A stretch of 64,000 nt of DNA from Escherichia coli (GTDB taxonomy: Bacteria; Pseudomonadota; Gammaproteobacteria; Enterobacterales; Enterobacteriaceae): assembly GCF_045037415.1 (NCBI RefSeq), contig NZ_CP173438.1. The stretch is one strand, 5' to 3'. This document shows, in pieces, positions 8,896 through 60,702 of this stretch; within the stretch, counting starts at the first letter, position 1; each line of letters opens with the position of its first letter. The position numbers and the translations under genes were made by a program. The notes beneath the pieces are model-generated. The model made no database searches. It saw nothing but the letters and a program-made list of their open reading frames with translations, and had not been told where the DNA came from.

Positions 8896-9068
8896 CGTGA
8901 TCCCTTAAGCATCTTTTTTATGCTTACTTCGCCGTGGATACTACCACGCACATTTCATATCTGATGTGCGTGCCGGGGTTCACTTGTTGCGGACTTGTCG
9001 TGTTTTCTGCGTCCGCTAAGGAACCTTTAAAAACTGTCTTAGTGTCAGGGGCAGTTTTTAAAGATTTC

Positions 9069-9258
9069 CTGCATTTCTTTTGTAGGCCGGATAAGGCATT
9101 CACGCCGCATCCGGCGCTGTTTGCCTGATGCGACGCTTGCGCGTCTTATCAGGCCTACGGTTTCTGCATTTCTTTTGTAGGCCGGATAAGGCGTTCACGC
9201 CGCATCCGGCACTGGTTGCCTGATGCGACGCTTGTGCGTCTTATCAGGCCTACGGTTT
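9069..9258. repeat. Tandem duplication of a roughly 95-bp REP/BIME unit
   Basis: Two near-identical copies of ctgcatttcttttgtaggccggataaggc-ttcacgccgcatccggc...gcctgatgcgacgctt-gcgcgtcttatcaggcctacggttt, abutting the sdhB stop codon. Confidence 0.75.
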
Positions 9259-9973
9259 ACGCATTACGTTGCAACAACATCGACTTGATATGGCCGATGG
9301 CGCGCGTCGGGTTCAGCCCCTTCGGACATACACTGACGCAGTTCATGATGCTGTGACAGCGGAATACACTGAATGCATCGCTCAAACCGTCGAGGCGGCT
9401 GTCAGTCTCGGTATCACGGCTATCGATCAGGAAACGATATGCCGCTAACAAGCCTGCCGGACCGATAAACTTATCGGGATTCCACCAGAAAGACGGACAA
9501 GAGGTTGAACAACATGCGCAGAGAATACATTCATACAACCCGTCGAGTTTTTCGCGCTGCTCTGGCATCTGTAAATGCTCGCGAGCTGGCGGATTTTGTC
9601 CATTATTCAACAGGTAAGGCTTAATTTTCTCATATTGCGCATAGAATTGTCCCATGTCTACCACCAAATCGCGGATCACCGGTAAACCTGGCAGCGGACG
9701 AATCACAATCTTCTTGCCCGGCTGGTTGAGTGCCGAAATCGGGGTAATACAGGCCAGACCATTCTTACCGTTCATGTTCAGACCGTCGGAACCGCACACA
9801 CCTTCACGGCAGGAGCGGCGGAACGACAGGCTGGGATCTTTCTCTTTCAGCTGAATAAGCGCATCCAGCAGCATCATGTCGCGACCTTCTTCCGCTTCCA
9901 GGGTGTAATCCTGCATACGCGGAGCATCATCAACATCCGGGTTATAGCGATAAATTGAAAACTCGAGTCTCAT
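9257..9973 (-). CDS. sdhB: succinate dehydrogenase iron-sulfur subunit
   Basis: 238 aa; Cys clusters for 2Fe-2S, 4Fe-4S and 3Fe-4S. Confidence 0.97.
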   Translation of the reverse strand: MRLEFSIYRYNPDVDDAPRMQDYTLEAEEGRDMMLLDALIQLKEKDPSLSFRRSCREGVCGSDGLNMNGKNGLACITPISALNQPGKKIVIRPLPGLPVIRDLVVDMGQFYAQYEKIKPYLLNNGQNPPAREHLQMPEQREKLDGLYECILCACCSTSCPSFWWNPDKFIGPAGLLAAYRFLIDSRDTETDSRLDGLSDAFSVFRCHSIMNCVSVCPKGLNPTRAIGHIKSMLLQRNA

Positions 9974-9988
9974 TTTCCTGTCTCCGCA

Positions 9989-11755
9989 TTAGTAAGTACG
10001 AATCTTCGGCGGGAATGCCGGGCGCAGTTTCGGTTCCATGTTGACGCTTCGGCGCGTCATGGATTCCGACTCTGGCAGATACAGGGAGTGGCACAGCCAG
10101 TTTTCATCATCACGATCCGGGAAGTCGAAGCGGCTATGCGCGCCACGGCTTTCGGTACGGAAGTTGGCAGAAACAGCCGTTGCATACGCCGTTTCCATCA
10201 GGTTATCCAGTTCCAGGCACTCAACGCGCTGGGTGTTGAACTCGCTGGAAGTGTCATCCAGACGGGCATTTTTCAGACGCTCGCGGATAACTTTCAACTG
10301 CTCAAGCCCTTTCGCCATCGCATCACCTTCACGGAAGACCGAGAAGTTATGCTGCATACATTCTTGCAGTGCTTTACGGATCGCCACCGGATCTTCACCG
10401 TTACGGTTATTGTTCCAGCGGTTCAGGCGATCCAGAGACGCTTCTACATCAGACTCGCTGGCATCGCGCAGTGCGCCCTGCTCGGCGATAGACTCTTGCA
10501 GATGCAGACCTGCCGCACGACCAAATACCACCAGGTCCAGCAGCGAGTTGCCGCCCAGACGGTTAGCGCCGTGTACCGATACACAAGCGATTTCACCAAC
10601 GGCAAACAGCCCCGGAACAACCACATCTTCGCCTTTCTCATTCACCGTCAGCGCCTGACCGGTCACTTTGGTCGGAATACCGCCCATCATGTAGTGACAG
10701 GTTGGGATAACCGGAATCGGCTCTTTCACCGGATCGACGTGAGCGAAGGTACGGGAGAGTTCCAGAATACCCGGCAGACGGGATTCGAGAACTTCTTTCC
10801 CCAGATGGTCAAGTTTCAGTTTTGCGTGTGGCCCCCACGGACCATCACAGCCGCGACCTTCACGGATTTCGATCATGATGGAACGCGCCACCACGTCACG
10901 GCCCGCCAGGTCTTTGGCGTTCGGCGCATAACGCTCCATAAAGCGTTCGCCATGTTTGTTCAGCAGATAACCGCCTTCACCACGGCACCCTTCGGTGACC
11001 AGTACGCCCGCACCGGCAATACCGGTCGGGTGGAACTGCCACATTTCCATATCCTGCACCGGTACGCCTGCACGGATAGCCATGCCGACACCGTCGCCAG
11101 TGTTAATGTGGGCGTTGGTGGTGGACTGATAAATACGCCCTGCCCCGCCAGTCGCCAGCACTGTCGCGCGAGCTTTAAAGTAAACCACTTCACCAGTTTC
11201 GATGCACAGTGCGGTACAACCGACCACTGCGCCATCCTGGTTTTTCACCAGATCCAGCGCATACCACTCGGAGAAAATGGTGGTGTGGTTTTTCAGGTTC
11301 TGCTGATAAAGCGTGTGCAACAGTGCGTGACCGGTACGGTCAGCTGCCGCCGCAGTACGTGCCGCCTGCTCGCCGCCGAAGTTTTTCGACTGACCGCCAA
11401 ACGGACGTTGATAGATACGACCATCATCAAGACGCGAGAACGGCAGGCCCATATGTTCCAGTTCCAGAATCGCTTCCGGCCCGGTTTTACACATATATTC
11501 AATCGCGTCCTGGTCACCGATATAGTCCGACCCTTTTACGGTGTCGTACATATGCCATTCCCAGTTATCTTCATGGGTATTACCCAGCGCAACGGTAATA
11601 CCACCTTGCGCAGAAACGGTATGGGAACGGGTCGGGAAGACCTTAGAGAGCAGCGCACAGGTCTGGCCACTCTGGGAAATTTGCAGCGCCGCGCGCATAC
11701 CTGCGCCGCCAGCACCAATCACAACTGCATCAAATTCTCTGACTGGCAATTTCAT
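9989..11755 (-). CDS. sdhA: succinate dehydrogenase flavoprotein subunit
   Basis: ORF-track frame 9989..11767; start placed at internal Met ([22 protein letters not shown]) where it overlaps the sdhD stop. Confidence 0.95.
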
Positions 11756-12102
11756 CACACACCCCACACCACAACGAATCCATAAATCACGTAAACCACC
11801 AGTGCAACGACAATCACCAGTTGCAGCATCAGGCGCAAGGCCAGCGGTTTAACGTAGTCGGTCAACACCTGCCACATGCCGATCCAGGCATGGATCAAGA
11901 TAGAAAACAGCGCCAGCAGGGTGAACACTTTGGTGAACGCAGAGGCGAAGAAACCAATCCAGACTTCATATGTCAGCTCGCCACTGGTAGCGAAAAAACC
12001 GACCATATAAATGATGTAGAGCGTCAGGACGATAGCGGTAGCACGAACGAGGATGAAATCATGTACGCCATTGCGTCCTAATGCGGAGGCGTTGCTTACC
12101 AT
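11755..12102 (-). CDS. sdhD: succinate dehydrogenase membrane anchor subunit
   Basis: 115 aa hydrophobic protein in the sdhCDAB operon. Confidence 0.95.
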
Positions 12103-12485
12103 ACGAGGACTCCTGCGAGAAGTGAAAGCACGACAGTAATAACAAAGGAGATTTTGGCGGAGCGTTTACCCGCTTCGAATGTTTCTTCCAGATAGCCAAA
12201 ATCCATCATCATGTGGCGAATACCTACGACGACGTGATATGCCAGAGCGGTAAGGATGCCCCACATGATAAATTTGACGAAGAAGCTGCCCATAATCGCG
12301 GAAGCTTGCTCGAAACCTTCAGGGGAAGAGAGGCTGGTACCCAGAAGCCACAGCAGGATGCCCACTGCAACAAAGGTGATCACACCGGAAACGCGATGGA
12401 GAATGGACGCTATCGCCGTGACGGGGAACCGGATGGTCTGTAGGTCCAGATTAACAGGTCTTTGTTTTTTCACATTTCTTATCAT
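12096..12485 (-). CDS. sdhC: succinate dehydrogenase cytochrome b556 subunit
   Basis: ORF-track frame 12096..12500; start placed at [15 protein letters not shown]. Confidence 0.9.
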
Positions 12486-12500
12486 GAATAACGCCCACAT

Positions 12501-13193
12501 GCTGTTCTTATTATTCCCTGGGGACTACGGGCACAGAGGTTAACTTTCTGTTACCAGGAGACGTCGGGATTTCCTTCCTCCGGTCTGCTTGCGGGTCAGA
12601 CAGCGTCCTTTCTATAACTGCGCGTCATGCAAAACACTGCTTCCAGATGCGAAAACGACACGTTACAACGCTGGGTGGCTCGGGATTGCAGGGTGTTCCG
12701 GAGACCTGGCGGCAGTATAGGCTGTTCACAAAATCATTACAATTAACCTACATATAGTTTGTCGGGTTTTATCCCGAACAGTGATCTGCGTCACGATAAC
12801 AACATTTATTTAATTTTTAATCATCTAATTTGACAATCATTCAACAAAGTTGTTACAAACATTACTAGGAAAAGCATATAATGCGTAAAAGTTATGAAGT
12901 CGGTATTTCACCTAAGATTAACTTATGTAACAGTGTGGAAGTATTGACCAATTCATTCGGGACAGTTATTAGTGGTAGACAAGTTTAATAATTCGGATTG
13001 CTAAGTACTTGATTCGCCATTTATTCGTCATCAATAGATCCTTTACCTGCAAGCGCCCAGAGCTCTGTACCCAGGTTTTCCCCTCTTTCACAGAGCGGCG
13101 AGCCAAATAACAAACGGGTAAAGCCAGGTTGATGTGCGAAGGCAAATTTAAGTTCCGGCAGTCTTACGCAATAAGGCGCTAAGGAGACCTTAA
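12501..13193. promoter_or_regulatory. Divergent sdhC / gltA promoter-regulatory region
   Basis: About 690-bp AT-rich non-coding spacer between divergent sdhC and gltA; individual binding sites not mapped here. Confidence 0.7.
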
Positions 13194-14477
13194 ATGGCTG
13201 ATACAAAAGCAAAACTCACCCTCAACGGGGACACAGCTGTTGAACTGGATGTGCTGAAAGGCACGCTGGGTCAAGATGTTATTGATATCCGTACTCTCGG
13301 TTCAAAAGGTGTGTTCACCTTTGACCCAGGCTTCACTTCAACCGCATCCTGCGAATCTAAAATTACTTTTATTGATGGTGATGAAGGTATTTTGCTGCAC
13401 CGCGGTTTCCCGATCGATCAGCTGGCGACCGATTCTAACTACCTGGAAGTTTGTTACATCCTGCTGAATGGTGAAAAACCGACTCAGGAACAGTATGACG
13501 AATTTAAAACTACGGTGACCCGTCATACCATGATCCACGAGCAGATTACCCGTCTGTTCCATGCTTTCCGTCGCGACTCGCATCCAATGGCAGTCATGTG
13601 TGGTATTACCGGCGCGCTGGCAGCGTTCTATCACGACTCGCTGGATGTTAACAATCCTCGTCATCGTGAAATTGCCGCGTTCCGCCTGCTGTCAAAAATG
13701 CCGACCATGGCCGCGATGTGTTACAAGTATTCCATTGGTCAGCCATTTGTTTACCCGCGCAACGATCTCTCCTACGCCGGTAACTTCCTGAATATGATGT
13801 TCTCCACACCGTGCGAACCGTATGAAGTTAATCCGATTCTGGAACGTGCTATGGACCGTATTCTGATCCTGCACGCTGACCATGAACAGAACGCCTCCAC
13901 CTCCACCGTGCGTACCGCTGGCTCTTCGGGTGCGAACCCGTTTGCCTGTATCGCAGCAGGTATTGCTTCACTGTGGGGACCTGCGCACGGTGGTGCTAAC
14001 GAAGCGGCGCTGAAAATGCTGGAAGAAATCAGCTCCGTTAAACACATTCCGGAATTTGTTCGTCGTGCGAAAGACAAAAATGATTCTTTCCGCCTGATGG
14101 GCTTCGGTCATCGCGTGTACAAAAACTACGACCCGCGCGCCACCGTAATGCGTGAAACCTGCCATGAAGTGCTGAAAGAGCTGGGCACCAAAGATGACCT
14201 GCTGGAAGTGGCTATGGAGCTGGAAAACATCGCGCTGAACGACCCGTACTTTATCGAGAAAAAACTGTACCCGAACGTCGATTTCTACTCTGGTATCATC
14301 CTGAAAGCGATGGGTATTCCGTCTTCTATGTTCACCGTGATCTTCGCTATGGCACGTACGGTTGGCTGGATCGCCCACTGGAGCGAAATGCACAGTGACG
14401 GTATGAAGATTGCCCGTCCGCGTCAGCTGTATACCGGCTACGCGCAGCGTGATTTTAAGTCGGATATTAAGAAGTAA
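13194..14477 (+). CDS. gltA: citrate synthase
   Basis: 427 aa; [22 protein letters not shown]-terminus; GFGHRVY active-site motif. Confidence 0.97.
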
Positions 14478-14492
14478 AAATGACACCGACAA

Positions 14493-14521
14493 AACCCTGC
14501 GTGGACACGCAGGGTTTTTAA
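14493..14521. terminator. Bidirectional intrinsic terminator between gltA and the TRAP operon
   Basis: aaaa-ccctgcgtg-gac-acgcaggg-tttttt: perfect hairpin flanked by A-run and T-run. Confidence 0.75.
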
Positions 14522-14523
14522 TT

Positions 14524-15834
14524 CTACACCAGCAGCAAAGATATTGCCGGAATATAGGTAATGACCAACAGAAGTAAAATAAGACTGATCAGTAATGGCA
14601 CCGCTTCACGCATAAATTGCCCGACAGAAACCTGTACGGTATTACATACCAGCAGCATCACCGTTCCGACAGGTGGTGATAACGTTCCTAACGATAAGTT
14701 GAGGATCATAATGATGCCAAAATGCACCGGATCAATGCCAAAATGAGCCACCACGGGTTTAAGTAATGGGACTAATATCAGCAGAATGGCACTACCTTCA
14801 AGGAACATGCCAAGCACCAGCAGCAATAGATTGATAATCAATAAAAAGACGTATTTATTATCGGTCAGAGAAGTTACAAACTCCGCAACCGTGATACCTG
14901 CCCGCTCAAGGGAAAATATCCAGCCCAGCGCGGCACTCGCCATAATGATTAACATGACCGATGCCGTGGAACGCGCCGTCTCAGAGAGTGCTGTAAATAC
15001 ATGGCTGATTTTCAGTTCGCGATAAATTACAAAACCAATAAACATTACCAATAATACTGCTACCGCTCCGGCTTCCGTTGGCGTAAAGATATTTGCCCGA
15101 ATACCACCGATAACCGCAACAATTAAGAACAGTGCTGGCCAGGCCTGCACCAGCGCCACTGACACTTCTTTCGGTTTTGGCCAGTGTTCGCTGGAAGGTT
15201 TTAAACCGCGACGAATAGCCACCAACCATACGGTAACGATCAACATGGCGGAGCACAGCAGACCTGGCAGGATCCCGGCCATAAACATGGAGCCGATGGA
15301 GACATCCGCCACCAGTCCGTAAAGGATCAGTGCAATACCCGGTGGAATAATTGGTGTAATCAGCGAACCACTTGCCGTTATCGCCGCCGCAAAGCCACGG
15401 GAATAACCTTTCTGTTCCATTTCCGGCACCATCATGCGCGATAACATTGCGGCATCCGCCAGATTTGAGGCACTGACACCGCCCATCATGGTACTGACCA
15501 GAATATTAGCCCCACCCAGGCCACCGCGCATTCTGCCAATCAACACGTTGGCAATTTGCAAAATACGCGCGGCAATACCGGTATAGCTCATTAACGTGCC
15601 TAATAAGATAAAAAACGGAATAGCTAACAGCGAAGGGGTTTGCGTCGTGGCAATCAAACGCTGAATTGCCACCATTAACGGCACATTTGAATAGCAAAGG
15701 AAGTAGGTCAGAATGCCGCAAAACATCGCCAGCCATACCGGCATATTGATAAATAAACAGACGAACATAAGCGGAATGATCATCAGCCAGTTATCCAGCC
15801 AGCTTCCCGCCAGTAATTCACTCAATGCTGTCAT
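14524..15834 (-). CDS. TRAP transporter large permease subunit (DctM family)
   Basis: 436 aa polytopic membrane protein; stop/start overlap with the upstream small permease. Confidence 0.85.
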   Translation of the reverse strand: MTALSELLAGSWLDNWLMIIPLMFVCLFINMPVWLAMFCGILTYFLCYSNVPLMVAIQRLIATTQTPSLLAIPFFILLGTLMSYTGIAARILQIANVLIGRMRGGLGGANILVSTMMGGVSASNLADAAMLSRMMVPEMEQKGYSRGFAAAITASGSLITPIIPPGIALILYGLVADVSIGSMFMAGILPGLLCSAMLIVTVWLVAIRRGLKPSSEHWPKPKEVSVALVQAWPALFLIVAVIGGIRANIFTPTEAGAVAVLLVMFIGFVIYRELKISHVFTALSETARSTASVMLIIMASAALGWIFSLERAGITVAEFVTSLTDNKYVFLLIINLLLLVLGMFLEGSAILLILVPLLKPVVAHFGIDPVHFGIIMILNLSLGTLSPPVGTVMLLVCNTVQVSVGQFMREAVPLLISLILLLLVITYIPAISLLLV

Positions 15835-16295
15835 TATTCACCTTCTTTGCGTGGCGTTTTCTTGATCAGTTGTAAGGCAGTAAAACAGGCGACACCGATA
15901 GCGCCAACCGTGACGGCAATATCGATCCAAAACCAGGATATTTTTAATATTTGCGTGGTTTTAAAGGCTGTCCCGGCAGCTAATTTCCATGCTGACCAGG
16001 CCATGACCACCAGCAAAATAATAGACATCAGAGAGACTAAAAACGCTAATATACGTTGCCCGCGTGAAGTAAGTGCATCGGCTAAAAATGGAATCGATAA
16101 ATGGGTATTATCTCGTTCAGCAACAACCGCACCAAACATGACTACCCAAATCATTAATAAACCGGAAACCTCTTCTGTCCACTGTAATGGCATATGAAAA
16201 CAGTAACGCATTATTACCGCAGCAATGGTCATGATTACCAATATAAAGAGCGTTAATACCGCAGCAACTTCAATCATTTTCCCTAAAAGACGCAT
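15834..16295 (-). CDS. TRAP transporter small permease subunit (DctQ family)
   Basis: ORF-track frame 15834..16331; start placed at ATG 16295 (MRLLGKMIEVAAVL, GAGG Shine-Dalgarno); alternative upstream start at 16331. Confidence 0.7.
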   Translation of the reverse strand: MRLLGKMIEVAAVLTLFILVIMTIAAVIMRYCFHMPLQWTEEVSGLLMIWVVMFGAVVAERDNTHLSIPFLADALTSRGQRILAFLVSLMSIILLVVMAWSAWKLAAGTAFKTTQILKISWFWIDIAVTVGAIGVACFTALQLIKKTPRKEGE

Positions 16296-16354
16296 AAACA
16301 CCTCTGCTCTTAACGGTCGGTGCCGAAACACCGACCAGTCCTTATGCCATGAAG

Positions 16355-17323
16355 TTATTTCAGCTGTTGCTGAATAGTGTCATACAAACCAGGGGTCCAT
16401 TCCGGGAATTGTTGATAGACTTTTAAGGCTTTTTCTTTGAAAGGGGCGACGTCAGGATAGATGATTTCCACGCCCTGCTCCTGCATGGTTTTCAACATTG
16501 TCGCATCCTGCTCAGTGGTAATTTTCTGGCTATATAAACCAGCTTCATACGCTGTCTGGTGAATAATATCTAACTGCGCAGGTGTCAGGGTACTGAAAAA
16601 CGCTTCGCCACCCAACCATAATGATGTATTGGTCAGATAGTTCACCATTGACAGATATTTCGCCTGCTCATGCAGCTTTTGCCCATAGAGAACAGAAACC
16701 GGGTTTTCCACACCATCGATCATCCCCTGAGTCAGCGCCGGATAAACATCTCCCAGCGGCATTGGTGTTGGGGTTGCGCCCATCGCTTCGATAGCTTTAA
16801 TCTGCATGACGTTATTCGGCACGCGGATCTTCATCCCTTTCAAGTCTTCAGGTGTACGAATCGGTTTTTTAGCAATGATCTGCCTGGTACCGTACAGATA
16901 GTTGCTCATGACAATATGCACACCTTTTTCCCGTAGTTTCTGTTCTTTTTGTTTAAACCAGTCACTGGCATAAATCGCAAACAGTTTCTGCGGATCTTCG
17001 GTTAAATAAGGCCCAAACAATATTCCCAAGTCTGCATCGTAGTCAGTTAAAAATCCTACATCACTGATGGTGATAATATTCATCCCCATCAACGCTTGTT
17101 CAGTAATATCTTGTTTAGAACCTAACTGTGAACTTGGGTAAAGTTCGAAAACAATATCTCCATTGCTTTTTTTCTTCACAAGTTCTGCCCAGTGCTTCAC
17201 TACTGTATCCGCTGGCTCGCCGGGGTTACTTTCATAGGCGATTTTGATAGTTACCGGTGCGGCATTCAGCATCGGACTAAATAAAGCTAAAAGAAATAAA
17301 AGTGGTGTCAGTAATTTTTTCAT
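16355..17323 (-). CDS. TRAP transporter substrate-binding protein (DctP family)
   Basis: 322 aa; signal peptide MKKLLTPLLFLLALFSPMLNAAPV; periplasmic binding-protein fold. Confidence 0.85.
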   Translation of the reverse strand: MKKLLTPLLFLLALFSPMLNAAPVTIKIAYESNPGEPADTVVKHWAELVKKKSNGDIVFELYPSSQLGSKQDITEQALMGMNIITISDVGFLTDYDADLGILFGPYLTEDPQKLFAIYASDWFKQKEQKLREKGVHIVMSNYLYGTRQIIAKKPIRTPEDLKGMKIRVPNNVMQIKAIEAMGATPTPMPLGDVYPALTQGMIDGVENPVSVLYGQKLHEQAKYLSMVNYLTNTSLWLGGEAFFSTLTPAQLDIIHQTAYEAGLYSQKITTEQDATMLKTMQEQGVEIIYPDVAPFKEKALKVYQQFPEWTPGLYDTIQQQLK

Positions 17324-17350
17324 TATTATTACCTGTAAGAGCTTTATCGA

Positions 17351-18547
17351 TTAACGGGGATCTGCCCGACAGACTGCACTTTTGCTGTAATCAAATGCTT
17401 TATACGTTAAAACAAACTCCTGATGTTCCAGTCGTTCTGCGGCACAATATTGACCGTTGGCGACATGTTCAATCACCTGCATAATATCGTCTGCAATATC
17501 GTCGAGCGTTGCGCCTTCGCTAATTACACGACCGGCATTAACGTCCATATCGTCAGATAAATGCTCCCACGTCTGCGGGTTATTACACACTTTAATAATA
17601 GGAGCGATCACTGAACCAATAACTGAACCGCGACCTGTGGTAAATAACACCATATGACAGCCAGAGGCGATAAGTTCCAGTGCTTCTGAGGAATCGTTAA
17701 TATTCGGATACCCAAAACGAGGTTCACCATCAGGCACCACGTCCATCAACCAAAGCCCAGGAAAGGGCGTTTGTTGCGTCGGCAAAATAACGCCAGCAAT
17801 CAGCGCATCGCCCGACTTGGTATAAGCCCCAAGGGATTTTTCTTCCTGAGTGGTTAAGCCGCCTTCAGCATTACCGTTAGAAAAACTCCCCAGCCCCATC
17901 AAACTGTAATAACGTTCGGCTTTTGTCATTGCCACTTCGATGGCATCACGTGCCTGCGAACTAGCCGCGCGCGACATCATATGCTGCTCACAACCAAGCA
18001 ACTCACCGCTTTCTTCAAAAATACAGGTAGCCCCTTTCTCCAGCAGTTGGTCAAAGGCACGTCCTACTGCCGGGTTACCCGTGATACCACTGGTGCCATC
18101 GGAGCCACCGCAGATAGTACCAACCACCAGGTCGCTCCAGTTCAGGATACAACGCGGTGTATCCGCAAGCTGTTCCAGCATTTCAGCGACCAACTGCTTA
18201 CCCAGAGTAATGGTGTTGGTCGTGCCTTTATTTTCCTGAATGACCAGCGTATGGCACGGTCGCCCACTTTCTCGTACTTCTTGCTCCAGCCGACGGCGAT
18301 CGAAATTCTCGCACCCCAGCGAAATAATCAGTACACCACCTACGTTGCTATGAGTCGCCAGATTTTTCACCAGCCGATAGCCATAATCGCTGGGATAACA
18401 ACCTGAAAAACCAAAATACTGCACGTCGTGACAAGGAAATCCTTCGGCAATCTTTTTAGCGACATGGCTGGCACACTCCACCATAAAGATTACCTGCACA
18501 GTATTACGAATACCTGGTCGACCATTTTGCCGTACATAACCTTCCAT
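17351..18547 (-). CDS. UxaA-family sugar-acid dehydratase, large subunit
   Basis: 398 aa resembling the C-terminal domain of altronate/galactarate dehydratases; 1-nt stop/start overlap with the SAF-domain partner. Confidence 0.8.
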   Translation of the reverse strand: MEGYVRQNGRPGIRNTVQVIFMVECASHVAKKIAEGFPCHDVQYFGFSGCYPSDYGYRLVKNLATHSNVGGVLIISLGCENFDRRRLEQEVRESGRPCHTLVIQENKGTTNTITLGKQLVAEMLEQLADTPRCILNWSDLVVGTICGGSDGTSGITGNPAVGRAFDQLLEKGATCIFEESGELLGCEQHMMSRAASSQARDAIEVAMTKAERYYSLMGLGSFSNGNAEGGLTTQEEKSLGAYTKSGDALIAGVILPTQQTPFPGLWLMDVVPDGEPRFGYPNINDSSEALELIASGCHMVLFTTGRGSVIGSVIAPIIKVCNNPQTWEHLSDDMDVNAGRVISEGATLDDIADDIMQVIEHVANGQYCAAERLEHQEFVLTYKAFDYSKSAVCRADPR

Positions 18548-18855
18548 TATGCTTTTTCCTCTGACTGATAGCCGGCATCATCATGATGAAAAATGGCGAT
18601 GGCATTGCTGGCAAGATTATGGGAATGCACATGTTCACCCATGGCAATATCGCGAGTGGCGTGTCCGATAATGGCGCCGTATTTCAGAATCGAATCACCA
18701 TTGTTCAGCGCTTCGCAGGCCAGTTTGTGCCCCAGGGTAACGGAACTACAGGCCACCATTTCCCCCTCATCCCACCAGACAATATCGCCACTGGCGATGT
18801 CATTCAGCGCGACTACACAGTTATCTTTGGCATGTAGCTTTAACGCACGTTTGCG
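18547..18855 (-). CDS. UxaA-family dehydratase small subunit (SAF domain)
   Basis: ORF-track frame extends to 18963 and would overlap the SDR gene; start placed at internal Met (MRKRALKLHAKDNCVVAL). Confidence 0.65.
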   Translation of the reverse strand, partial: RKRALKLHAKDNCVVALNDIASGDIVWWDEGEMVACSSVTLGHKLACEALNNGDSILKYGAIIGHATRDIAMGEHVHSHNLASNAIAIFHHDDAGYQSEEKA

Positions 18856-18872
18856 CATAATTCCTCCGTACA

Positions 18873-19628
18873 TCAGAAGCCGATCAATGCGCCGCCATCC
18901 ACCACCAGCACCTGACCACTGACAAACGCCGCTGCGTCTGAAGCCAGATAAACCGCAGCCCAACCGATATCCTCCGGCTTGCCGAATTTTTTCATCGGGG
19001 TACGACCCAGGATTTTGTTACGGCGTTCGTCATCACCTTCAATGGCCTTACGCAACATTGGTGTATCGATCCAGCCTGGCGCAATACCATTGACGCGAAT
19101 CCCATGAACGGCAAGCTCCGTGGTCATACCGCGAATCATGCCGAGATAGGCTGACTTCGCTGCGCTGTAGCCAGTAACCAGAGGCTGCCCAAGAAATGAG
19201 GTCATCGATGCAGTAAAAAGCACACAGCCTTTACCGCGTTGTTTCATATGCGGCACCAGCGCTTTGGTTAACGCAAATGCGCCGACTACGTGAACGTCGA
19301 GTACTGACTCAAAATCACTGACGCTCATCTCTTCAATCGGTTTTTTGCAGTGATTGCCTGCGTTATTGACCAGGATATCGATAGCCCCGTGTTCGCTAAT
19401 AAGCACATCAACTTTTTCCTGCGCGGCTGCGGTATCCCCGACATCCATTTGTATCCAACTGGCCTGCGACCCCAATGTTCCGGCGGTCGCTTGCGCCAGC
19501 TCGCCGTTCAGGTCAGCAATAATGACCTTCGCCCCGCTGACTATCATGCATTTCGCCATTGCCAGCCCCAGCCCACTGGCTGCACCGGTGATCAACGCGG
19601 TTTTGTTATGTAAAGAAAAAGCATTCAT
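18873..19628 (-). CDS. SDR-family NAD(P)-dependent oxidoreductase
   Basis: 251 aa; TGAASGLGLA Rossmann motif, YSAAK catalytic motif. Confidence 0.85.
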   Translation of the reverse strand: MNAFSLHNKTALITGAASGLGLAMAKCMIVSGAKVIIADLNGELAQATAGTLGSQASWIQMDVGDTAAAQEKVDVLISEHGAIDILVNNAGNHCKKPIEEMSVSDFESVLDVHVVGAFALTKALVPHMKQRGKGCVLFTASMTSFLGQPLVTGYSAAKSAYLGMIRGMTTELAVHGIRVNGIAPGWIDTPMLRKAIEGDDERRNKILGRTPMKKFGKPEDIGWAAVYLASDAAAFVSGQVLVVDGGALIGF

Positions 19629-19639
19629 GGTGTCGCTCC

Positions 19640-20653
19640 TTAAAGGTCAATGAGGATTTTGGTATACGCGCCGGGATCACTTGCCCAGTCGCTAAAAGCG
19701 TGATCAGCCTGTTCCAGCGGGTAGTGAGCACTCACCAGATTGCTGACCGGATAACGCCCGGACTCCATCAATGCCAGCACGGCACGAAAATCCGCCACGG
19801 TGGCATTGCGCGAACCACGGATATCCAGTTCTTTCATCAGGAACTGCGCACTCTGATAACTCACTGGCTGTTTGGCGTAACCGACATAAACCACACGACC
19901 GCTAAACGCCACCAACCCTGTAGCCTGTTCAATGGTTTGTTGATTACCCACCGCTTCAATCACCACTTCCGGGCCGCGACCGTCATTTAACAGCACCAGT
20001 TCTGCCGCCACGTCACATTGCTGCGAATTAAGAAAACGTTGCGCACCGCATTCCAGGGCAATGTTCCGCTTGCGATCATCAATATCGATAGCAATTACGC
20101 GCGCCCCCATGGCGGATGCCGCGGCGATAGCGCCAAGGCCAATTACCCCACAACCGATAACTGCGACCCATTCACCCACATTAATTTGCGCACGTCTGGC
20201 CGCATGTAGTCCCACGGCCAGCGGTTCTACCAGCGCTAACTCATCAACACTTAAGGCATTACAGACAATGACTTTATGTGCAGGCATCGTCAGTTGTTGC
20301 GCCATCCCCCCCTGACGTTGCACACCAAGAGTTTGGTTGTTTTTACAGGCGTTAGGACGACCGCTCAGACAGGAGCTGCACACGCCACACTCAGTGCAAG
20401 GCAGAACGACCACCCGGTCACCTGGCTTGATCGCCCCTGCCATATCGCCAGTTGCCAGCACCGTGCCGCCAATTTCATGCCCCGGAATACAGGGATAATT
20501 AACCAGCGGATTTAGTCCCCGCCAGGTATTGAGGTCAGAACCACACAGTCCGACACGCTCAACATTGATTAGCACTTCTCCTTTACCGCAGACAGGTTCG
20601 GGGATATCAACAAATCGCGCCTGACTTCCCTGCTCAATGGTTAATGCCTTCAT
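19640..20653 (-). CDS. Zn-dependent medium-chain alcohol/polyol dehydrogenase
   Basis: 337 aa; catalytic zinc motif (GHEIGG), structural-zinc Cys cluster (CTECGVCSSC), GCGVIGLG NAD motif. Confidence 0.85.
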   Translation of the reverse strand: MKALTIEQGSQARFVDIPEPVCGKGEVLINVERVGLCGSDLNTWRGLNPLVNYPCIPGHEIGGTVLATGDMAGAIKPGDRVVVLPCTECGVCSSCLSGRPNACKNNQTLGVQRQGGMAQQLTMPAHKVIVCNALSVDELALVEPLAVGLHAARRAQINVGEWVAVIGCGVIGLGAIAAASAMGARVIAIDIDDRKRNIALECGAQRFLNSQQCDVAAELVLLNDGRGPEVVIEAVGNQQTIEQATGLVAFSGRVVYVGYAKQPVSYQSAQFLMKELDIRGSRNATVADFRAVLALMESGRYPVSNLVSAHYPLEQADHAFSDWASDPGAYTKILIDL

Positions 20654-20665
20654 TCATTGCTCTCC

Positions 20666-21352
20666 TTACATTACGCCGAAGGTTTCAAAGGCCTGTACCG
20701 TGCTCATGCCATCACTGATGGCTTTGCGCACTTCACTTTCAGTTGCCACTTTTTCCAGGGCCTGGGTAATAACTTCTTTCTCAACAACCTGGGGAATAAT
20801 CAGTAATCCGTCACGATCACCAAACACGATATCGCCCGGATTCACTCGCACGCCGTGAAATTCAATAGGTACGCCGAAGTCGATGACCTTGCCGCGCGGA
20901 CCTTGATCCTGTGCGTAAGTGCCATGACAAAAAGTGGGAAATTTCAATTCAAGAATTTCAGCAGAGTCACGGGCGTAACCATCGAGTACCGCACCTGCTG
21001 CTTTCAGATGCATGGCACGGGTAGACATCAACCCGCCCCACAAGGCATAGCGCAGAGAGCTGCCCGTAGTGATGTAAACATCGTTCTCTTTGAGGGCATC
21101 CAGCGCTTCAAACATGATGCCAAACGGTTTTTCGCCAATCGCCGTCTTACCCGACGTCGATTTGGTTTCGTAAACGTCCGACTCCAGCACCGGCATTGCC
21201 CGGCCTGCCACCACCGTATTCACATCCAGCGGCTTGATTGCCGGAGAAACAAACTGGTGCATATAGCCCAGCGTGTCGAGAATATCGCCAACCACGGCGG
21301 TAAATAGCCGGGTTTTCATCAAAGCAAAAAGTTCGTTATCACTCTTCCACAT
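20666..21352 (-). CDS. RraA-family protein (putative 4-hydroxy-2-oxoacid aldolase / oxaloacetate decarboxylase-like)
   Basis: ORF-track frame 20666..21409; start placed at MWKSDNELFALMK; first gene of the catabolic operon. Confidence 0.7.
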   Translation of the reverse strand: MWKSDNELFALMKTRLFTAVVGDILDTLGYMHQFVSPAIKPLDVNTVVAGRAMPVLESDVYETKSTSGKTAIGEKPFGIMFEALDALKENDVYITTGSSLRYALWGGLMSTRAMHLKAAGAVLDGYARDSAEILELKFPTFCHGTYAQDQGPRGKVIDFGVPIEFHGVRVNPGDIVFGDRDGLLIIPQVVEKEVITQALEKVATESEVRKAISDGMSTVQAFETFGVM

Positions 21353-21409
21353 TATTTTCGTCCTGTAAGCCTGTTTAACAGGTTTACAGGGTAAGGAGAA
21401 AAAGCGCAC

Positions 21410-21615
21410 AATACTGCGAAGGGCGTCACGAAAAAGTTGTGTATTTACTATTTCTTCGCCACTCTTTCACACAATATGTCTTTGATTCGCACTGCATGGC
21501 GGGCGCACAGGCGCAGTAGTCTATTGATAATCAAGGGTTCTGGAGGAAAATATGAAGGATACAGTCCCGGTATTCTGGATTTCACCGACCAGGAAAAAGT
21601 ACAACAGGAGTAAAA
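21410..21615. promoter_or_regulatory. Divergent promoter region between the island-A catabolic operon and its GntR regulator
   Basis: 206-bp spacer between divergently oriented genes; contains a 23-codon uORF with a strong Shine-Dalgarno sequence. Confidence 0.45.
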
Positions 21616-22329
21616 ATGAGTGAGAGTGCGTTATTGACCAGCGTAACGTTATCGTCACAGGTCAAAAATCATATTCTTAATCTGATCGCCGAACAAAAAT
21701 TGACACCGGGGATGCCAGTTCCCAGTGAAGTTCAGCTGATTCAGAAATTGGGTGTCAGTCGGGGTATTGTGCGTGAGGCCTATCGTTCACTTGCCGCCCT
21801 GGGGATTCTGGAAACGCACAGCGGTAAAGTGCCACGAATCAAAAAATTTGATGATGAAGTGCTGCGCGTGGTGTTTGGATTTGCCCTGGCGACCGAACAA
21901 GTGACAACAGAGCAAATTCTTCAAGTACGCCGCTGGCTGGAGTTGGGCGTTGTGGAAGCTGCTGCCCGTAATGGCGAAGAGGAAGATTTTGCTAACCTAC
22001 GGGCTGAAATGGCAAAAATCCGCGAACAGTTCAATGATGTTGAAAGCTTTATCACCCATGATATCCGCTTCCATCAGTTACTTGCCGTTGCCTCAAAAAA
22101 TCCGCTTTTTATGATGTTATTGCAGGCATTACATCAGCAGTTGCGGCAATCCATCCAGGAGGGTTTAAACGCCCAAAGCGATCAGAAAGAGTATGGCAAT
22201 CACATCATCACACTACACCAGAAAATCTGCGATGCTGTGTGTGCCAGGGATGTCGAAACGGCGACTCAAGCCATGAAATCACACTTCGACAGCCCGGTCA
22301 GTGCACTGATCAATAATTCCTCGTCATAA
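21616..22329 (+). CDS. GntR/FadR-family transcriptional regulator
   Basis: 237 aa; N-terminal HTH (SEVQLIQKLGVSRGIVREAYRSL) and helical C-terminal effector domain; AGGAG Shine-Dalgarno. Confidence 0.85.
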   Translation: MSESALLTSVTLSSQVKNHILNLIAEQKLTPGMPVPSEVQLIQKLGVSRGIVREAYRSLAALGILETHSGKVPRIKKFDDEVLRVVFGFALATEQVTTEQILQVRRWLELGVVEAAARNGEEEDFANLRAEMAKIREQFNDVESFITHDIRFHQLLAVASKNPLFMMLLQALHQQLRQSIQEGLNAQSDQKEYGNHIITLHQKICDAVCARDVETATQAMKSHFDSPVSALINNSSS

Positions 22330-27538: not shown

Positions 27539-29203
<1,665 letters not shown>

Positions 29204-29217
29204 TAAGCCAGCACCAT

Positions 29218-29250
29218 GCCTGATAAAACGCTCGCTGCGTTTTATCAGGC
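29218..29250 (+). terminator. Hairpin at the dtpD 3' end (overlaps phr stop)
   Basis: gcctgataaaacgc-tcgct-gcgttttatcaggc inverted repeat. Confidence 0.45.
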
Positions 29251-30663
29251 TCCTTTCCTCGCTTCTTCGTACGCTGCCAGCGTTCGCAGCCTTGCCTCTT
29301 TGTGATCGACTATCGGTTGCGGATAATCCAACGTCACACCTGTTTTCTCTGCCCACTTCCACGGCTCATGCACCGCTTTCCCCGGTACATCGCGCAGCTC
29401 CGGTAGCCACTGGCGGATAAATTCGCCTTCGCGGTCAAATTTCTCGCCCTGAGTTGTCGGGTTGAAAATACGAAAATACGGCGCTGCATCAGTACCCGTA
29501 GAAGCGGCCCACTGCCAGCCACCGTTATTAGCTGCCAAATCACCATCAATCAGCTGCGACATGAAATATCGCTCGCCTTCGCGCCAGTCGATCAACAAAT
29601 CTTTCACCAGAAAACTGGCTGTAATCATCCGTAGCCGGTTATGCATCCAGCCAGTGCTGTTAAGCTGACGCATGGCAGCATCGACAATCGGGTATCCCGT
29701 TTTGCCTTCCTGCCAGGCCTTTAAATGGGCGGGATTACTTTGCCACTGTACACGATCCGTCCAGGCAATAAACGGACGATGTTTACACAGCGAAGGATAA
29801 TACGTCATCAAATGGCGGTAGAACTCGCGCCAGATCAGCTCACTAAGCCAGACACTACCGGCTCCACCGTCCAGCGCCTGCGGCTGTTCCGCCAACAAGC
29901 GATGCAAACACTGGCGAGGCGATAACCCGCCCGTTGCCAGGCTGGCGGACAAACGACTGGTGCCTTCTACTGCCGGAAAATCTCGTTGTTGCTCATACTC
30001 TCCGGCACCGTTCTGGCAAAACTGGCGTAATTGCGCAATCGCCGCTTTTTCTTCCACCGGGAAATGCGCAGTATCGAAAGACTGACGAGGATAATTCAGC
30101 GTAATGGATGGCGCGGGATCTATCGCTCCACTACTACGTACTTTTGGCGCAGCGACGCACTCCGGCATCCCTTCCCGCAGCCGTTTCAGCCAGGCATTCT
30201 TAAAAGGCGTAAAGACTTTGTACATCTCATGATTGCCAGTCATCACCGCCCCCGGCGGCAGGATCACGCTGTCATCAAATCCTTCACACACCACGTTACG
30301 CAGCGCTCTTTCAACTTCCACATCCCGCGCCCGCTCATTTACCTCATACTGATAGTTATAAAAAAGATGAGTAACGCGGTTTTCCGCGCACACCTGTTTA
30401 ACTATTTCGACGCTGGCGGCAAAGTCATCCACTTCACGGAACAATAAAGGAATACCTTTTTCCGCCAGCGCGTTTTGCAGCGCATTAAGTTGTGTATTGA
30501 TAAGTTCAGCCTGACGCGGCGACACATTATGCGCCGCCCACTGGCGTGGGGTAGCGATATACAACGCCAGCACGCGTGCAGACGAATTGCGGCAGGCGGC
30601 AGCCAGTGCGAGATTATCGTGCAGACGTAAATCCTGGCGAAACCAGACCAGATGGGTAGTCAT
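29245..30663 (-). CDS. phr: deoxyribodipyrimidine photolyase
   Basis: 472 aa; MTTHLVWFRQDLRLHDNLAL N-terminus; FAD-binding C-terminal domain. Confidence 0.93.
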   Translation of the reverse strand: MTTHLVWFRQDLRLHDNLALAAACRNSSARVLALYIATPRQWAAHNVSPRQAELINTQLNALQNALAEKGIPLLFREVDDFAASVEIVKQVCAENRVTHLFYNYQYEVNERARDVEVERALRNVVCEGFDDSVILPPGAVMTGNHEMYKVFTPFKNAWLKRLREGMPECVAAPKVRSSGAIDPAPSITLNYPRQSFDTAHFPVEEKAAIAQLRQFCQNGAGEYEQQRDFPAVEGTSRLSASLATGGLSPRQCLHRLLAEQPQALDGGAGSVWLSELIWREFYRHLMTYYPSLCKHRPFIAWTDRVQWQSNPAHLKAWQEGKTGYPIVDAAMRQLNSTGWMHNRLRMITASFLVKDLLIDWREGERYFMSQLIDGDLAANNGGWQWAASTGTDAAPYFRIFNPTTQGEKFDREGEFIRQWLPELRDVPGKAVHEPWKWAEKTGVTLDYPQPIVDHKEARLRTLAAYEEARKGA

Positions 30664-31169
30664 AAAACTCCTGCATGGCGCAAGTTAATCACACGCGGCC
30701 AAAGTTCGAAATAACGCTGCCCTGAAAGCCAGGCGTCAGGATAAAGCGCCATATAGTGTTTGATACGCATCAGCGGCGCAAGAAGCGATTGCTCGCCACG
30801 GCGATAACTGTCGATAAGCGCCGCCAGCTGCTGGCGTTCTGTGGAATCAATATGTGGGCGAAAATATCCCTGAACGTGCATCAAAACGTTAGTATGATCA
30901 CGCCGGTTGGCAGGGTGAGAAAGCAAAACAATCACGCGTTGGCGGTACTGGTTGTAATAGTCATCCAGACTTTGCCACCGGTGAATATCAGCCACAAACG
31001 GGCCAAGTTTGCGGTACTCCGGCTGAGAATGCGCCAGAAAGACGAGTTTATAGCGGCTGTGATAATCGAGAAGCGCCCCGCGCGTTAGTCCTCGATCTTT
31101 GAGATTGTGTAACTCATGCAAAGCAAAAATGCGGATAAGGGTGCTGTCATCAAAAAGTTGTTGATTCAT
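30660..31169 (-). CDS. ybgA: DUF1722-family protein co-transcribed with photolyase
   Basis: 169 aa; 4-bp overlap with phr start. Confidence 0.85.
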   Translation of the reverse strand: MNQQLFDDSTLIRIFALHELHNLKDRGLTRGALLDYHSRYKLVFLAHSQPEYRKLGPFVADIHRWQSLDDYYNQYRQRVIVLLSHPANRRDHTNVLMHVQGYFRPHIDSTERQQLAALIDSYRRGEQSLLAPLMRIKHYMALYPDAWLSGQRYFELWPRVINLRHAGVL

Positions 31170-31210
31170 TACTGCTCCTGAACGGTTTACAGGAGTAAGT
31201 GTAGACGCCG

Positions 31211-31250
31211 AAAAAAGAAAACCGCCAGCGTTTCCACCGGCGGTTTTCTT
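31211..31250. terminator. Bidirectional terminator between ybfA and ybgA
   Basis: aaaaaagaaaaccgcc...ggcggttttcttt hairpin flanked by A-run and T-run. Confidence 0.5.
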
Positions 31251-31269
31251 TAAACGTCATGTTTGGCAA

Positions 31270-31476
31270 TCAGTAAAAATCACCGGTTGCCTTTTCGGCC
31301 TGATCCATCCACACCGGTTTATCGCTGGTTTTCGACCAGACGCGGTGCAGGTAGCTATAAAAGCGGGCGCGGTCTTTCCAGAAAAGCATGAAAGGCAGCG
31401 CCAGAACGCCCGCTGCAACCGCACAAGTACGGCGTAAAAAGATAAGCCATGCAGGATATTCTTTGTAGAGTTCCAT
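31270..31476 (-). CDS. ybfA: small DUF2517-family protein
   Basis: 68 aa; [17 protein letters not shown]-terminus. Confidence 0.8.
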
Positions 31477-31687
31477 ACTTTTCTCCCCCTTTTGTATCTA
31501 CCCGGTGAATAGCACCGGAAAAATGAATTCGTTTATCTGATGAAAATAGTACCGCTGTTTGTGTAATTTTACTACTCATCCGACCACTTATTTTTGCTTA
31601 TTGATGGTTTATTTATATTCACCGTGTAATTAAGTTACATAAAAGTTAAATTAATACTAAACATTAGTTAAATCATTGCTTTTGCCA

Positions 31688-31708
31688 TTTTTATACTTTT
31701 TTTACACC
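31688..31708 (+). promoter_or_regulatory. KdpE response-regulator binding site of the kdpFABC promoter
   Basis: tttttatactttttttacacc about 80 bp upstream of kdpF, matching the known T-rich KdpE operator. Confidence 0.6.
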
Positions 31709-31788
31709 ACGCCCGCAGATTTTTGCGAAATCTTTGCAGCCAGAACTCTACCCTTCCGGTATCACTTTTAGGCCACTGGAGGTGCACT

Positions 31789-31878
31789 GTGAGTGCAGGC
31801 GTGATAACCGGCGTGTTGCTGGTGTTTTTATTACTGGGTTATCTGGTTTATGCCCTGATCAATGCGGAGGCATTCTGA
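31789..31878 (+). CDS. kdpF: K+-transporting ATPase small subunit F (29 aa)
   Basis: GTG-initiated ORF reading [29 protein letters not shown]; stop overlaps kdpA ATG (TGATG); below ORF-track size cutoff. Confidence 0.8.
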
Positions 31879-33551
31879 TGGCTGCGCAAGGGTTCTTACT
31901 GATTGCCACGTTTTTACTGGTATTAATGGTGCTGGCGCGTCCCTTAGGTAGCGGGCTGGCGCGGCTGATTAATGATATTCCTCTTCCTGGTACGACGGGC
32001 GTTGAACGCGTACTCTTTAGCGCGCTTGGCGTCTCTGACCGCGAGATGAACTGGAAGCAGTATCTCTCAGCCATTCTTGGCCTGAATATACTGGGGCTGG
32101 CGGTGCTGTTTTTTATGTTGCTCGGTCAGCACTATCTGCCGCTTAATCCACAGCAGTTGCCAGGGCTGTCGTGGGATCTGGCGCTCAATACCGCCGTCAG
32201 CTTTGTCACCAATACCAACTGGCAATCTTATAGCGGTGAAACCACGTTGAGCTATTTCAGCCAGATGGCGGGCTTAACGGTACAAAACTTTCTTTCTGCC
32301 GCCAGCGGGATTGCGGTGATTTTTGCCCTCATTCGTGCATTTACCCGCCAGAGCATGAGCACACTCGGGAATGCCTGGGTCGATCTGCTACGCATCACGT
32401 TATGGGTGCTAGTCCCTGTGGCGTTGTTGATCGCACTGTTTTTTATTCAACAAGGTGCGCTGCAAAACTTTCTGCCCTATCAGGCGGTGAATACCGTTGA
32501 AGGAGCACAACAGCTGTTACCCATGGGGCCAGTAGCTTCTCAGGAAGCGATCAAAATGCTCGGAACTAACGGCGGTGGCTTTTTTAATGCCAACTCGTCG
32601 CATCCGTTTGAAAACCCAACCGCACTGACCAACTTCGTGCAAATGCTGGCGATTTTCTTGATCCCAACAGCGCTGTGCTTTGCCTTTGGTGAAGTGGCGG
32701 GCGATCGTCGCCAGGGGCGCATGTTGCTGTGGGCGATGTCGGTGATTTTTGTCATCTGCGTAGGCGTAGTGATGTGGGCAGAAGTTCAGGGTAATCCTCA
32801 TCTGCTGGCGCTCGGCGCGGACAGCAGCATCAATATGGAAGGTAAAGAGAGCCGTTTCGGCGTGCTGGTCAGTAGCCTGTTTGCGGTCGTGACTACGGCG
32901 GCTTCCTGCGGCGCGGTGATTGCGATGCATGATTCGTTTACCGCTCTTGGTGGCATGGTGCCGATGTGGTTGATGCAAATTGGTGAAGTGGTATTCGGCG
33001 GCGTCGGTTCCGGCCTTTACGGCATGATGCTGTTTGTCCTGCTGGCGGTGTTTATTGCCGGGCTGATGATTGGTCGTACACCGGAATATCTGGGTAAAAA
33101 AATCGACGTACGCGAGATGAAACTGACTGCACTGGCGATTCTGGTCACCCCGACGCTGGTGCTGATGGGCGCGGCGCTGGCAATGATGACCGACGCCGGA
33201 CGTAGCGCCATGCTCAACCCTGGCCCGCATGGTTTTAGCGAAGTGCTGTACGCCGTGTCATCCGCCGCTAACAACAACGGCAGCGCCTTTGCCGGATTAA
33301 GCGCCAACTCTCCATTCTGGAACTGTTTACTGGCGTTGTGCATGTTTGTCGGGCGCTTCGGGGTGATTATCCCGGTGATGGCAATTGCCGGTTCGCTGGT
33401 GAGTAAAAAGAGCCAACCCGCCAGCTCCGGCACATTGCCAACGCACGGCCCGCTGTTTGTTGGCCTGTTAATCGGCACCGTGTTGCTGGTTGGCGCACTG
33501 ACCTTTATCCCTGCCCTGGCGCTTGGTCCGGTGGCGGAATATCTCTCCTGA
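31878..33551 (+). CDS. kdpA: K+-transporting ATPase subunit A
   Basis: ORF-track frame 31734..33551; start placed at [14 protein letters not shown] overlapping the kdpF stop. Confidence 0.95.
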
Positions 33552-53003: not shown

Positions 53004-53765
53004 TTAGTCGGCTATGATTAAACGCGTCGACAAGGACGCAAGCGTTCTACGCGTCTGCCCATCAAGCTGACTATCCGTAATAATCTCTGTCAGTTCATTA
53101 AGATGCGCGATATTAAACAGCGACCATGAACCGTATTTTGAGCTGTCAGCCAGGAGAATTTTGCGCGAAGCATGCGCGATAAGATCGCGTTTTAGTGCGG
53201 CTTTCTCTTCCGTGGGTGCTGTAATACCCTTTTCAAGATCCCAGCTGTTACAGCTTAAAAATGCCACGTCCGGCCAGGTATTTTGCAGCAATTTACGACC
53301 ATGTTCGCCAATGCAGGACTGGCTGGAGTCGTCAATACGTCCGCCGATAATCGTCACTTCAATTTGCTTGAATTCAGCCAAAAAAAGCGCGATATGCAGG
53401 TCGCTTGTGATCACGCGAAGCGGTAAATGTGTAATCTGCCGCGCAAGTTCAATCATTGTCGTACCGGCATCAAGGACGACGGAATCCCCCGCTTTGACCA
53501 TTGACGCCGCTGCGCTGGCGATGGCATGTTTTTCCGCCAGGCTGCGCTGCATTTTCTCATGGGTAGTCGGTTGGGTAGGAATAAACCGGTTGAGAGTCAC
53601 ACCGCCGTGTGTACGGCTGATAACACCCTGCTCATCGAGTTTTATCAGGTCTCGACGAATCGTAGCCGGCGACGCATTGGTTACCGCCACCAGCTCATCT
53701 ACGGTGACCAGATTATGGCTTTTCAGGTAATCCATGATCTGCTCTAACCGGTTATATCCCTTCAT
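53004..53765 (-). CDS. DeoR-family transcriptional regulator
   Basis: 253 aa; N-terminal HTH ([17 protein letters not shown]) and C-terminal sugar-phosphate sensor domain. Confidence 0.85.
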
Positions 53766-53766
53766 T

Positions 53767-55984: not shown

Positions 55985-56019
55985 CACTCCAGGTTGTTTT
56001 ATGATAACAATGATTATAT

Positions 56020-56033
56020 TCAATCATGATTGA
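56020..56033. promoter_or_regulatory. Perfect 14-bp palindrome TCAATCA|TGATTGA, candidate operator
   Basis: Located about 35 bp upstream of the kinase start in the divergent intergenic region. Confidence 0.4.
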
Positions 56034-56116
56034 TTAAATGTGAGCAAGCTCAAGTTATTAATCACTCGAATAAATTATAAAATTAGACCATGTTACGTAG
56101 GCTACGGCATTTTGAA

Positions 56117-56132
56117 TGATTGAATTCAATCA
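56117..56132. promoter_or_regulatory. Perfect 16-bp palindrome TGATTGAA|TTCAATCA, candidate operator
   Basis: Same half-site as 56020..56033 in opposite arrangement; about 20 bp upstream of the Fe-ADH start. Confidence 0.4.
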
Positions 56133-56150
56133 CCAGAAGAGAGGTTATTT

Positions 56151-57308: not shown

Positions 57309-57311
57309 ATC

Positions 57312-58199: not shown

Positions 58200-58258
58200 A
58201 TTAACTCTATTATCCAGCCCGCTATAAAGTTTAGATAAAGAGAATAAAGGATTACCCC

Positions 58259-59017: not shown

Positions 59018-59052
59018 TAAATCTATTACCAACTTTAAGATGGAGTCTAACT

Positions 59053-60689: not shown

Positions 60690-60702
60690 AAGGAGAGAAA
60701 AA

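Follow-up and report, generated by a model that had tools for sequence, protein, structure and literature searches.

The compact ybfA-ybgA junction of a phylogroup B2 Escherichia coli corresponds to the K-12 rhsC site without its Rhs element

We analysed a 64-kb stretch of Escherichia coli DNA (hereafter the window) in which, according to the list of open reading frames, dtpD on the plus strand is followed by phr, ybgA and ybfA on the minus strand and then by kdpFABC on the plus strand. The gene ybfA (31270..31476, minus strand; stop codon at 31270-31272) is predicted from the open reading frame list and annotation to encode a DUF2517 protein of 68 aa. It is followed in tandem by ybgA (30660..31169, minus strand), named as such in the record of strain SK1144 and predicted to encode a DUF1722 protein of 169 aa, with an ATG that ends at 31169. 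The third gene of the tandem array is the photolyase gene phr (29245..30663, minus strand), an intact open reading frame of 472 aa supported by the open reading frame list, the SK1144 and K-12 annotations, and tblastn. There is an overlap of 4 bp between phr and the stop of ybgA, suggesting that phr is the second gene of a ybgA-phr operon. The SK1144 record carries the same gene annotation as the window, including the spacer between ybfA and ybgA. In SK1144, which is 99.99% identical to the window, phrB is annotated as frameshifted, and the lone gap between the two sequences is probably located in phr. The initial annotation of this DNA had placed ybfA and ybgA about 100 bp apart; the spacer (31170..31269) is exactly 100 bp long and is fully accounted for by a predicted terminator, a putative -10 box, and a leader.

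The most prominent feature of the spacer is a perfect 13-nt inverted repeat (31214-31226 and 31239-31251). In the sense of ybfA, the RNA is predicted to fold into a 17-bp stem with a GAAA loop (31231-31234) followed by UUUUCUUUUUU (-30.1 kcal/mol, z = -7.4), and none of 200 shuffled sequences folded as well. The whole spacer folds at -42.7 kcal/mol (z -6.8). The hairpin begins 18 nt past the ybfA stop codon and has the GC stem (core at 31222-31230 and 31235-31243), short loop, and U-run of an intrinsic terminator. As predicted, this terminator spans 31211..31251 on the minus strand, with the stem-loop at 31214-31251 and the U-tract running from 31221 to 31211. Pairing is kept in 10 sequences from four genera, with two pairs changed on both sides. 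A consensus scan for terminators did not call the hairpin on either strand, likely because the flanking A and T runs pair and are counted into the stem. The case for a terminator is instead based on folding and conservation. An Rfam scan of 30600-31900 at E <= 1 returned only sub-threshold chance matches to the hairpin and no known RNA family.

The hairpin had initially been described as a bidirectional terminator. A strong hairpin is indeed present in the spacer, but its bidirectionality was not borne out. Both neighbouring genes lie in tandem on the minus strand, so there is no convergent transcript that would need to be terminated, and we found neither convergent units nor a competent hairpin with a U-run on both strands. 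If the hairpin were truly bidirectional, it would also stop antisense transcription on the plus strand that came from the dtpD side through phr and ybgA, before it reached ybfA and the kdp promoter. The A-tract on one side and the T-tract on the other give this impression, and the plus-strand form still folds at -19.4 kcal/mol (z -4.5) with UUUUCUUU after it. However, the apparent bidirectionality comes from this symmetry and nothing more. The plus-strand hairpin is weakened by A.C mismatches in place of G.U pairs, upper stem pairs are lost, and the 3' side offers only UUUUCUUUAAA, a short and interrupted U-run. Moreover, dtpD (27722-29203), the nearest plus-strand gene on that side, ends ~2 kb away, and in K-12 and O157, where an Rhs element is present, the hairpin still follows ybfA, as expected of a ybfA terminator. 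We therefore regard a bidirectional function as improbable; the hairpin is best described as a predicted terminator of ybfA.

Between this hairpin and ybgA lies the block TCTACACTTA (31196..31205, minus strand), a putative sigma-S-type extended -10 element of the ybgA-phr promoter with the hexamer TACACT at 31198-31203 and a C at -13. The extended -10 element of sigma-S promoters resembles TCTATACTTAA with C at -13, and a -35 element is dispensable. This consensus is said to go back to work by Weber and colleagues in 2005 and by Typas and colleagues in 2007. Compared with this consensus, TCTACACTTAC at 31205->31195 has 9 of 11 matches, including C(-13). Across Escherichia, Citrobacter, Enterobacter, and Trabulsiella, this block changes little or not at all, in contrast to the variable spacer around it, and it is present in every Rhs-occupied genome examined. 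The motif TCTAYRCTTA has a single match in the window, which is the ybgA -10 block, against 0.19 expected, and 18 of 100 shuffles of the window gave at least one match. Thus, the putative -10 motif alone is statistically unremarkable, and its support comes from conservation across genera and from a promoter model for K-12. A consensus scan called no ybgA promoter in the spacer.

The sigma-38 promoters listed for K-12 (preprint 10.1101/2020.02.05.936344, supplement files 11 and 33) include ybgAp1. The information-theory model of sigma-38 promoters in that study takes this same TACACT hexamer as the -10 of ybgAp1, which is one of only two sigma-38 promoters with a -35 site found by the -35 model of the preprint (10.1101/2020.02.05.936344). 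Expression of ybgA and phrB rises in O157 in early stationary phase (PMC2241611). The ybgA gene has also been used as a reporter gene for the RpoS regulon. Downstream of the -10 block, the 5' leader of ybgA (31175..31195, minus strand) contains the Shine-Dalgarno sequence AGGAG (31175-31179), which is included in one arm of a weak 6-bp hairpin (CUCCUG, a 9-nt loop, CAGGAG; -8.7 kcal/mol, z -2.6). AGGAG is conserved across genera, whereas the leader hairpin is kept within Escherichia only and not in Citrobacter. From these sequence features we infer both terminator and promoter activity at the spacer.

In K-12 MG1655 (NC_000913.3), ybfA ends at 729340 and ybgA starts at 739001. The gap of 9,660 bp contains rhsC, ybfB, ybfO, ybfC, ybfQ, ybfL, and ybfD, compared with the 100 bp seen here. 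It had been claimed for the window that rhsC is absent and the junction compact. The K-12 alignment was checked for the same short junction and does not show one, so that the claim stands. Alignment of the window with the K-12 stretch by blastn gave three colinear blocks. Homology on the ybfA side reaches window position 31218 (K-12 729392) and homology on the ybgA side resumes at 31207 (K-12 738963), with identities of 96.3% in the kdp-ybfA flank and 93.8% in the ybgA-phr flank. Thus, K-12 has 9,570 bp where the window has 10 bp. Searches with RhsC and YbfD by tblastn gave zero matches in the 64-kb window, which holds no Rhs core or H-repeat coding sequence.

Both the blastn breakpoints and alignments of the junctions place the element of Rhs-occupied genomes in the interval 31208..31217, which reads CTTTTTTCGG on the minus strand; the breakpoint is resolvable only to these T-rich ~10 bp. 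Reading from ybfA to ybgA, the empty site is ...GCTGGCGGTTTTCTTTTTTCGGCGTCTACACTTACTCC..., the left junction of K-12 is ...GCTGGCGGTTTTTT / GTATCAGGAAG..., and the right junction is ...CACAAATATCATTTCTCAA / CGTCTACACTTACTCC..., where the slash marks the breakpoint. These sequences place the element in the T-rich stretch of ~10 bp that separates the ybfA terminator from the block CGTCTACAC. We looked for a target-site duplication at the junctions and found none that was convincing. The left side of K-12 (...GGCGGTTTTTT / GTATCAGG) and its right side (...ATATCATTTCTCAA / CGTCTACAC) have only T-richness in common with the empty site GGCGGTTTTCTTTTTTCGGCGTCTACAC.

We determined how often each state occurs among 5,426 complete E. 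coli genomes (5,424 matching genomes for the compact count). The compact junction was present in one piece in 1,308-1,310 genomes (24%), and the K-12-type junction of ybfA, terminator, and rhs in 3,704 (68%). A different left junction, of the type found in strain MEI003, occurred in 198 genomes, and the remainder of about 210 genomes includes decayed remnants. The site is therefore variable in nature, with compact, K-12-type, and other Rhs states, as had been proposed initially. A minority of the compact genomes have K-12-like alleles in the flanks, for example CP52E and an O145:H28 strain. The MEI003-type element (MEI003 locus 8372-16004) comprises a 4,650-bp RHS gene, a gene for a SymE-family toxin that adjoins ybgA, and a DcrB-related fragment. 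At the left junction of this element, the ybfA terminator has been replaced. The ybgA leader variant of this type, CTCCTGTTAATATC, is common to Escherichia sp. E1V33, and this shared leader hints at exchange of the locus between species. In strain HH97 there is a frameshifted and truncated 2.8-kb RHS pseudogene between ybfA and ybgA (HH97 locus 12526-15318), suggesting that decay of an element in situ leaves remnants, unlike the clean junction of the window.

A short junction could in principle be an assembly artefact in which a repeated Rhs element was collapsed or skipped. Rhs repeats do break draft assemblies, and the contig of E. albertii stops 123 bp, that of Escherichia sp. MOD1-EC7003 397 bp, upstream of ybgA. 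However, the junction is shared by the ~1,310 compact genomes, all of them complete, and 1,084 of these match the window at 99% or higher identity across the 211-bp junction. It is also colinear base by base with other genera, and a collapse would leave sequence of the element, of which none is present. We consider the chance of an artefact to be negligible.

We aligned the spacers of the window, CP52E, E69, SCPM-O-B-8794, four Citrobacter species, one Enterobacter, and Trabulsiella; E69 and SCPM-O-B-8794 are compact representatives of two Escherichia species other than E. coli. The order is the same throughout: the ybfA stop, ~20 variable bases, the hairpin (AAAACCGCC...GGCGGTTTTTTT), ~10 variable bases, the near-invariant -10 block, ~15 bases, AGGAG, and ATG. 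We looked in this alignment for a scar of deletion in the window junction and found none, the junction being colinear with the outgroup genera. Citrobacter, Enterobacter, and Trabulsiella likewise have the gene order kdpA-ybfA-ybgA-phr and only a short distance between ybfA and ybgA: in the representatives of six Citrobacter species, in Enterobacter, and in Trabulsiella, ybfA lies ~100-165 bp upstream of ybgA. In most representatives of Erwinia, Dickeya, Budvicia, Pragia, and Samsonia, ybfA lies ~0.5-2.2 kb upstream of ybgA. The gene order in the outgroups indicates that the compact architecture is ancestral.

An ancestral architecture need not mean that the site was never occupied in this lineage, since Jackson et al. 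(2009) inferred from E. albertii that the ancestor of E. coli already had an Rhs gene at this locus (PMC2935791). A homologous right junction, ...CACAAAnnTCATTnnCnAnCGTCTACAC, is common to all the occupied sites examined, namely those of K-12, O157, MEI003, E. albertii, E. whittamii, and two Escherichia sp., which points to one old insertion. In a tree of ybgA-phr, compact and occupied states are interspersed, so that several gains, losses, or recombinational swaps are required. It is unlikely that the window lineage simply lost an element by deletion, since its junction agrees with that of the outgroups at every base and genuine decay leaves traces of the element.

It is conceivable, although we give it somewhat less than an even chance, that the compact junction is secondary and that the Rhs element was lost not by deletion but when homologous recombination, through the flanking ybfA and ybgA, brought in the empty allele of a donor. 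The ancestral presence proposed by Jackson et al. (PMC2935791) and the age of the insertion, seen in the same right junction in E. albertii, E. whittamii, cryptic-clade Escherichia, and most E. coli, are consistent with such a loss. So is CP52E, a compact genome that falls within a set of occupied E. coli on the tree of ybgA-phr and is 97% identical to K-12; its terminator nevertheless differs from that of K-12 at four stem-loop positions, as expected of an imported empty allele. Against this, the window junction is scarless and colinear with Citrobacter and Enterobacter, in-situ decay leaves remnants as in HH97, and the compact state of E69 and SCPM-O-B-8794 indicates that empty alleles persisted in the genus, making simple retention equally possible. 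Over the whole of 23-42 kb, the window differs from K-12, O157, and CP52E by 2-8%, and identity is lower, at ~92%, only in the bin of the non-coding spacer. Our search of 23-42 kb for a divergence peak at the junction gave no clear signal apart from this bin, and no recombination tract is thus visible against K-12. An old linked polymorphism or recombination tract signalled by such a peak had been a candidate and was dropped for lack of a clear signal. B2 would either have kept the empty allele throughout or have regained it by homologous recombination.

These results lead us to propose the following picture. In the compact form, ybfA would end in its own rho-independent terminator, the activity of which is predicted, and ~8 bp downstream would lie the -10 core of the sigma-S ybgA-phr promoter, followed by the ribosome-binding site and the start of ybgA. 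In the majority of the remaining E. coli, and in several further species of Escherichia, the ~10-bp T-rich gap between terminator and -10 holds an Rhs toxin element. The element keeps both signals intact and replaces all DNA upstream of the -10, in line with a single old Rhs insertion that slipped between terminator and promoter core and destroyed neither. With the element between the terminator and the -10 box, the sequence ahead of the -10 in occupied strains would come from the element. In K-12, it is the end of the Rhs element that lies upstream of the ybgAp1 -10, with a -35-like hexamer TTCACA 19 bp upstream (locus ~15945-15975), suggesting that the -35 of ybgAp1 would be derived from the insertion in this strain. 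At the position of TTCACA, the window has the 3' arm and T-run of the predicted ybfA terminator.

It is tempting to speculate that the presence or absence of Rhs rewires expression of the photolyase operon, such that levels of ybgA-phr and their dependence on RpoS could differ systematically between B2 and other phylogroups. Compact B2 strains have the terminator 3' arm and T-run upstream of the -10, possibly with read-through from ybfA. On the same reading, Escherichia may have maintained empty and occupied alleles by recombination as an old trans-species polymorphism. We consider this reading as a whole rather unlikely. The locus offers a concrete example in which a polymorphic toxin element alters what lies upstream of a DNA-repair operon.

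Over all 64 kb, the window is 99.99% identical to SK1144, with five mismatches and one gap, and ~565 genomes are at least 99% identical to it over 24 kb. The ECOR survey of Hill and colleagues from 1995 reportedly found the RhsA-B-C-F type element to be absent in the B2 clonal group. SK1144 is listed as phylogroup B2 (PMC12366417), which bears out the earlier suggestion that the junction informs on strain background. The compact junction is also found in Nissle (99.2% identity over the 1,051-bp query) and in an O127:H6 genome (96.7% over the 211-bp junction query). Jackson et al. (2009) defined Rhs locus 5 between kdpA and phr and counted 0 rhs genes in CFT073, 536, APEC O1, and E2348/69 (PMC2935791). 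Thus, the window comes from a strain of phylogroup B2, a group known to lack Rhs genes, and the compact junction is therefore a marker of lineage and not a new feature. We are highly confident that it is the unoccupied form of the K-12 rhsC site (locus 5), with the ancestral layout and value as a B2 lineage marker. As such, it is an ordinary example of an already documented presence/absence polymorphism. It has little importance beyond typing, for which it is a clean marker of strain background: a compact junction with this allele indicates a B2-like strain, and an occupied one points to most strains of phylogroups A, B1, and E.

The window contains other variable or probably variable sites. 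Between gltA and abrB (~14524-22329), the SK1144 annotation has genes for a TRAP C4-dicarboxylate transporter, two UxaA-family hydrolases, an SDR oxidoreductase, a zinc alcohol dehydrogenase, an RraA-family protein, and a GntR regulator. Among the matches listed in the 24-kb search, all but one of the genomes outside the lineage of the window match only from ~22420. K-12 presumably has the ybgOPQD fimbrial genes at this site. Judged from these sequence matches, the gltA-abrB region is a second lineage-variable site. A ~9-kb cluster between glnS and nagE (~53004-61983) contains genes for a DeoR regulator, D-threonate 4-phosphate dehydrogenase, D-threonate kinase, an iron alcohol dehydrogenase, a DHDPS-family protein, TerC, a sialidase-family protein, a YhcH-family protein, and an SLC13 permease. 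As glnS and nagE are adjacent in K-12, this cluster is probably another strain-variable island.

Among known systems, the RhsC element of K-12 at locus 5 has the same chromosomal site and the same flanks, ybfA and ybgA, and its breakpoints fall in the same T-rich interval, ~38-48 bp upstream of the ybgA start codon. By contrast, the window is without the Rhs core, core extension, immunity gene, and H-repeat/ISAs1 of that element. The MEI003-type element, also absent from the window, resembles that of K-12 in having the same right junction adjoining CGTCTACAC. Citrobacter, Enterobacter, and Trabulsiella are like the window in gene order, spacer length class, hairpin, -10 block, and AGGAG. They differ in that the hairpin loop and upper stem and the rest of the spacer diverge, and in Citrobacter the alignment implies a ybgA frame that starts earlier relative to the Escherichia protein. 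The Rhs-free B2 genomes CFT073, 536, APEC O1, and E2348/69 share with the window the same absence of the RhsA-B-C-F type element, with no difference of substance. To earlier descriptions of B2, our analysis adds the junction at the level of single bases, the comparison with outgroups, and the counts in 5,426 genomes.
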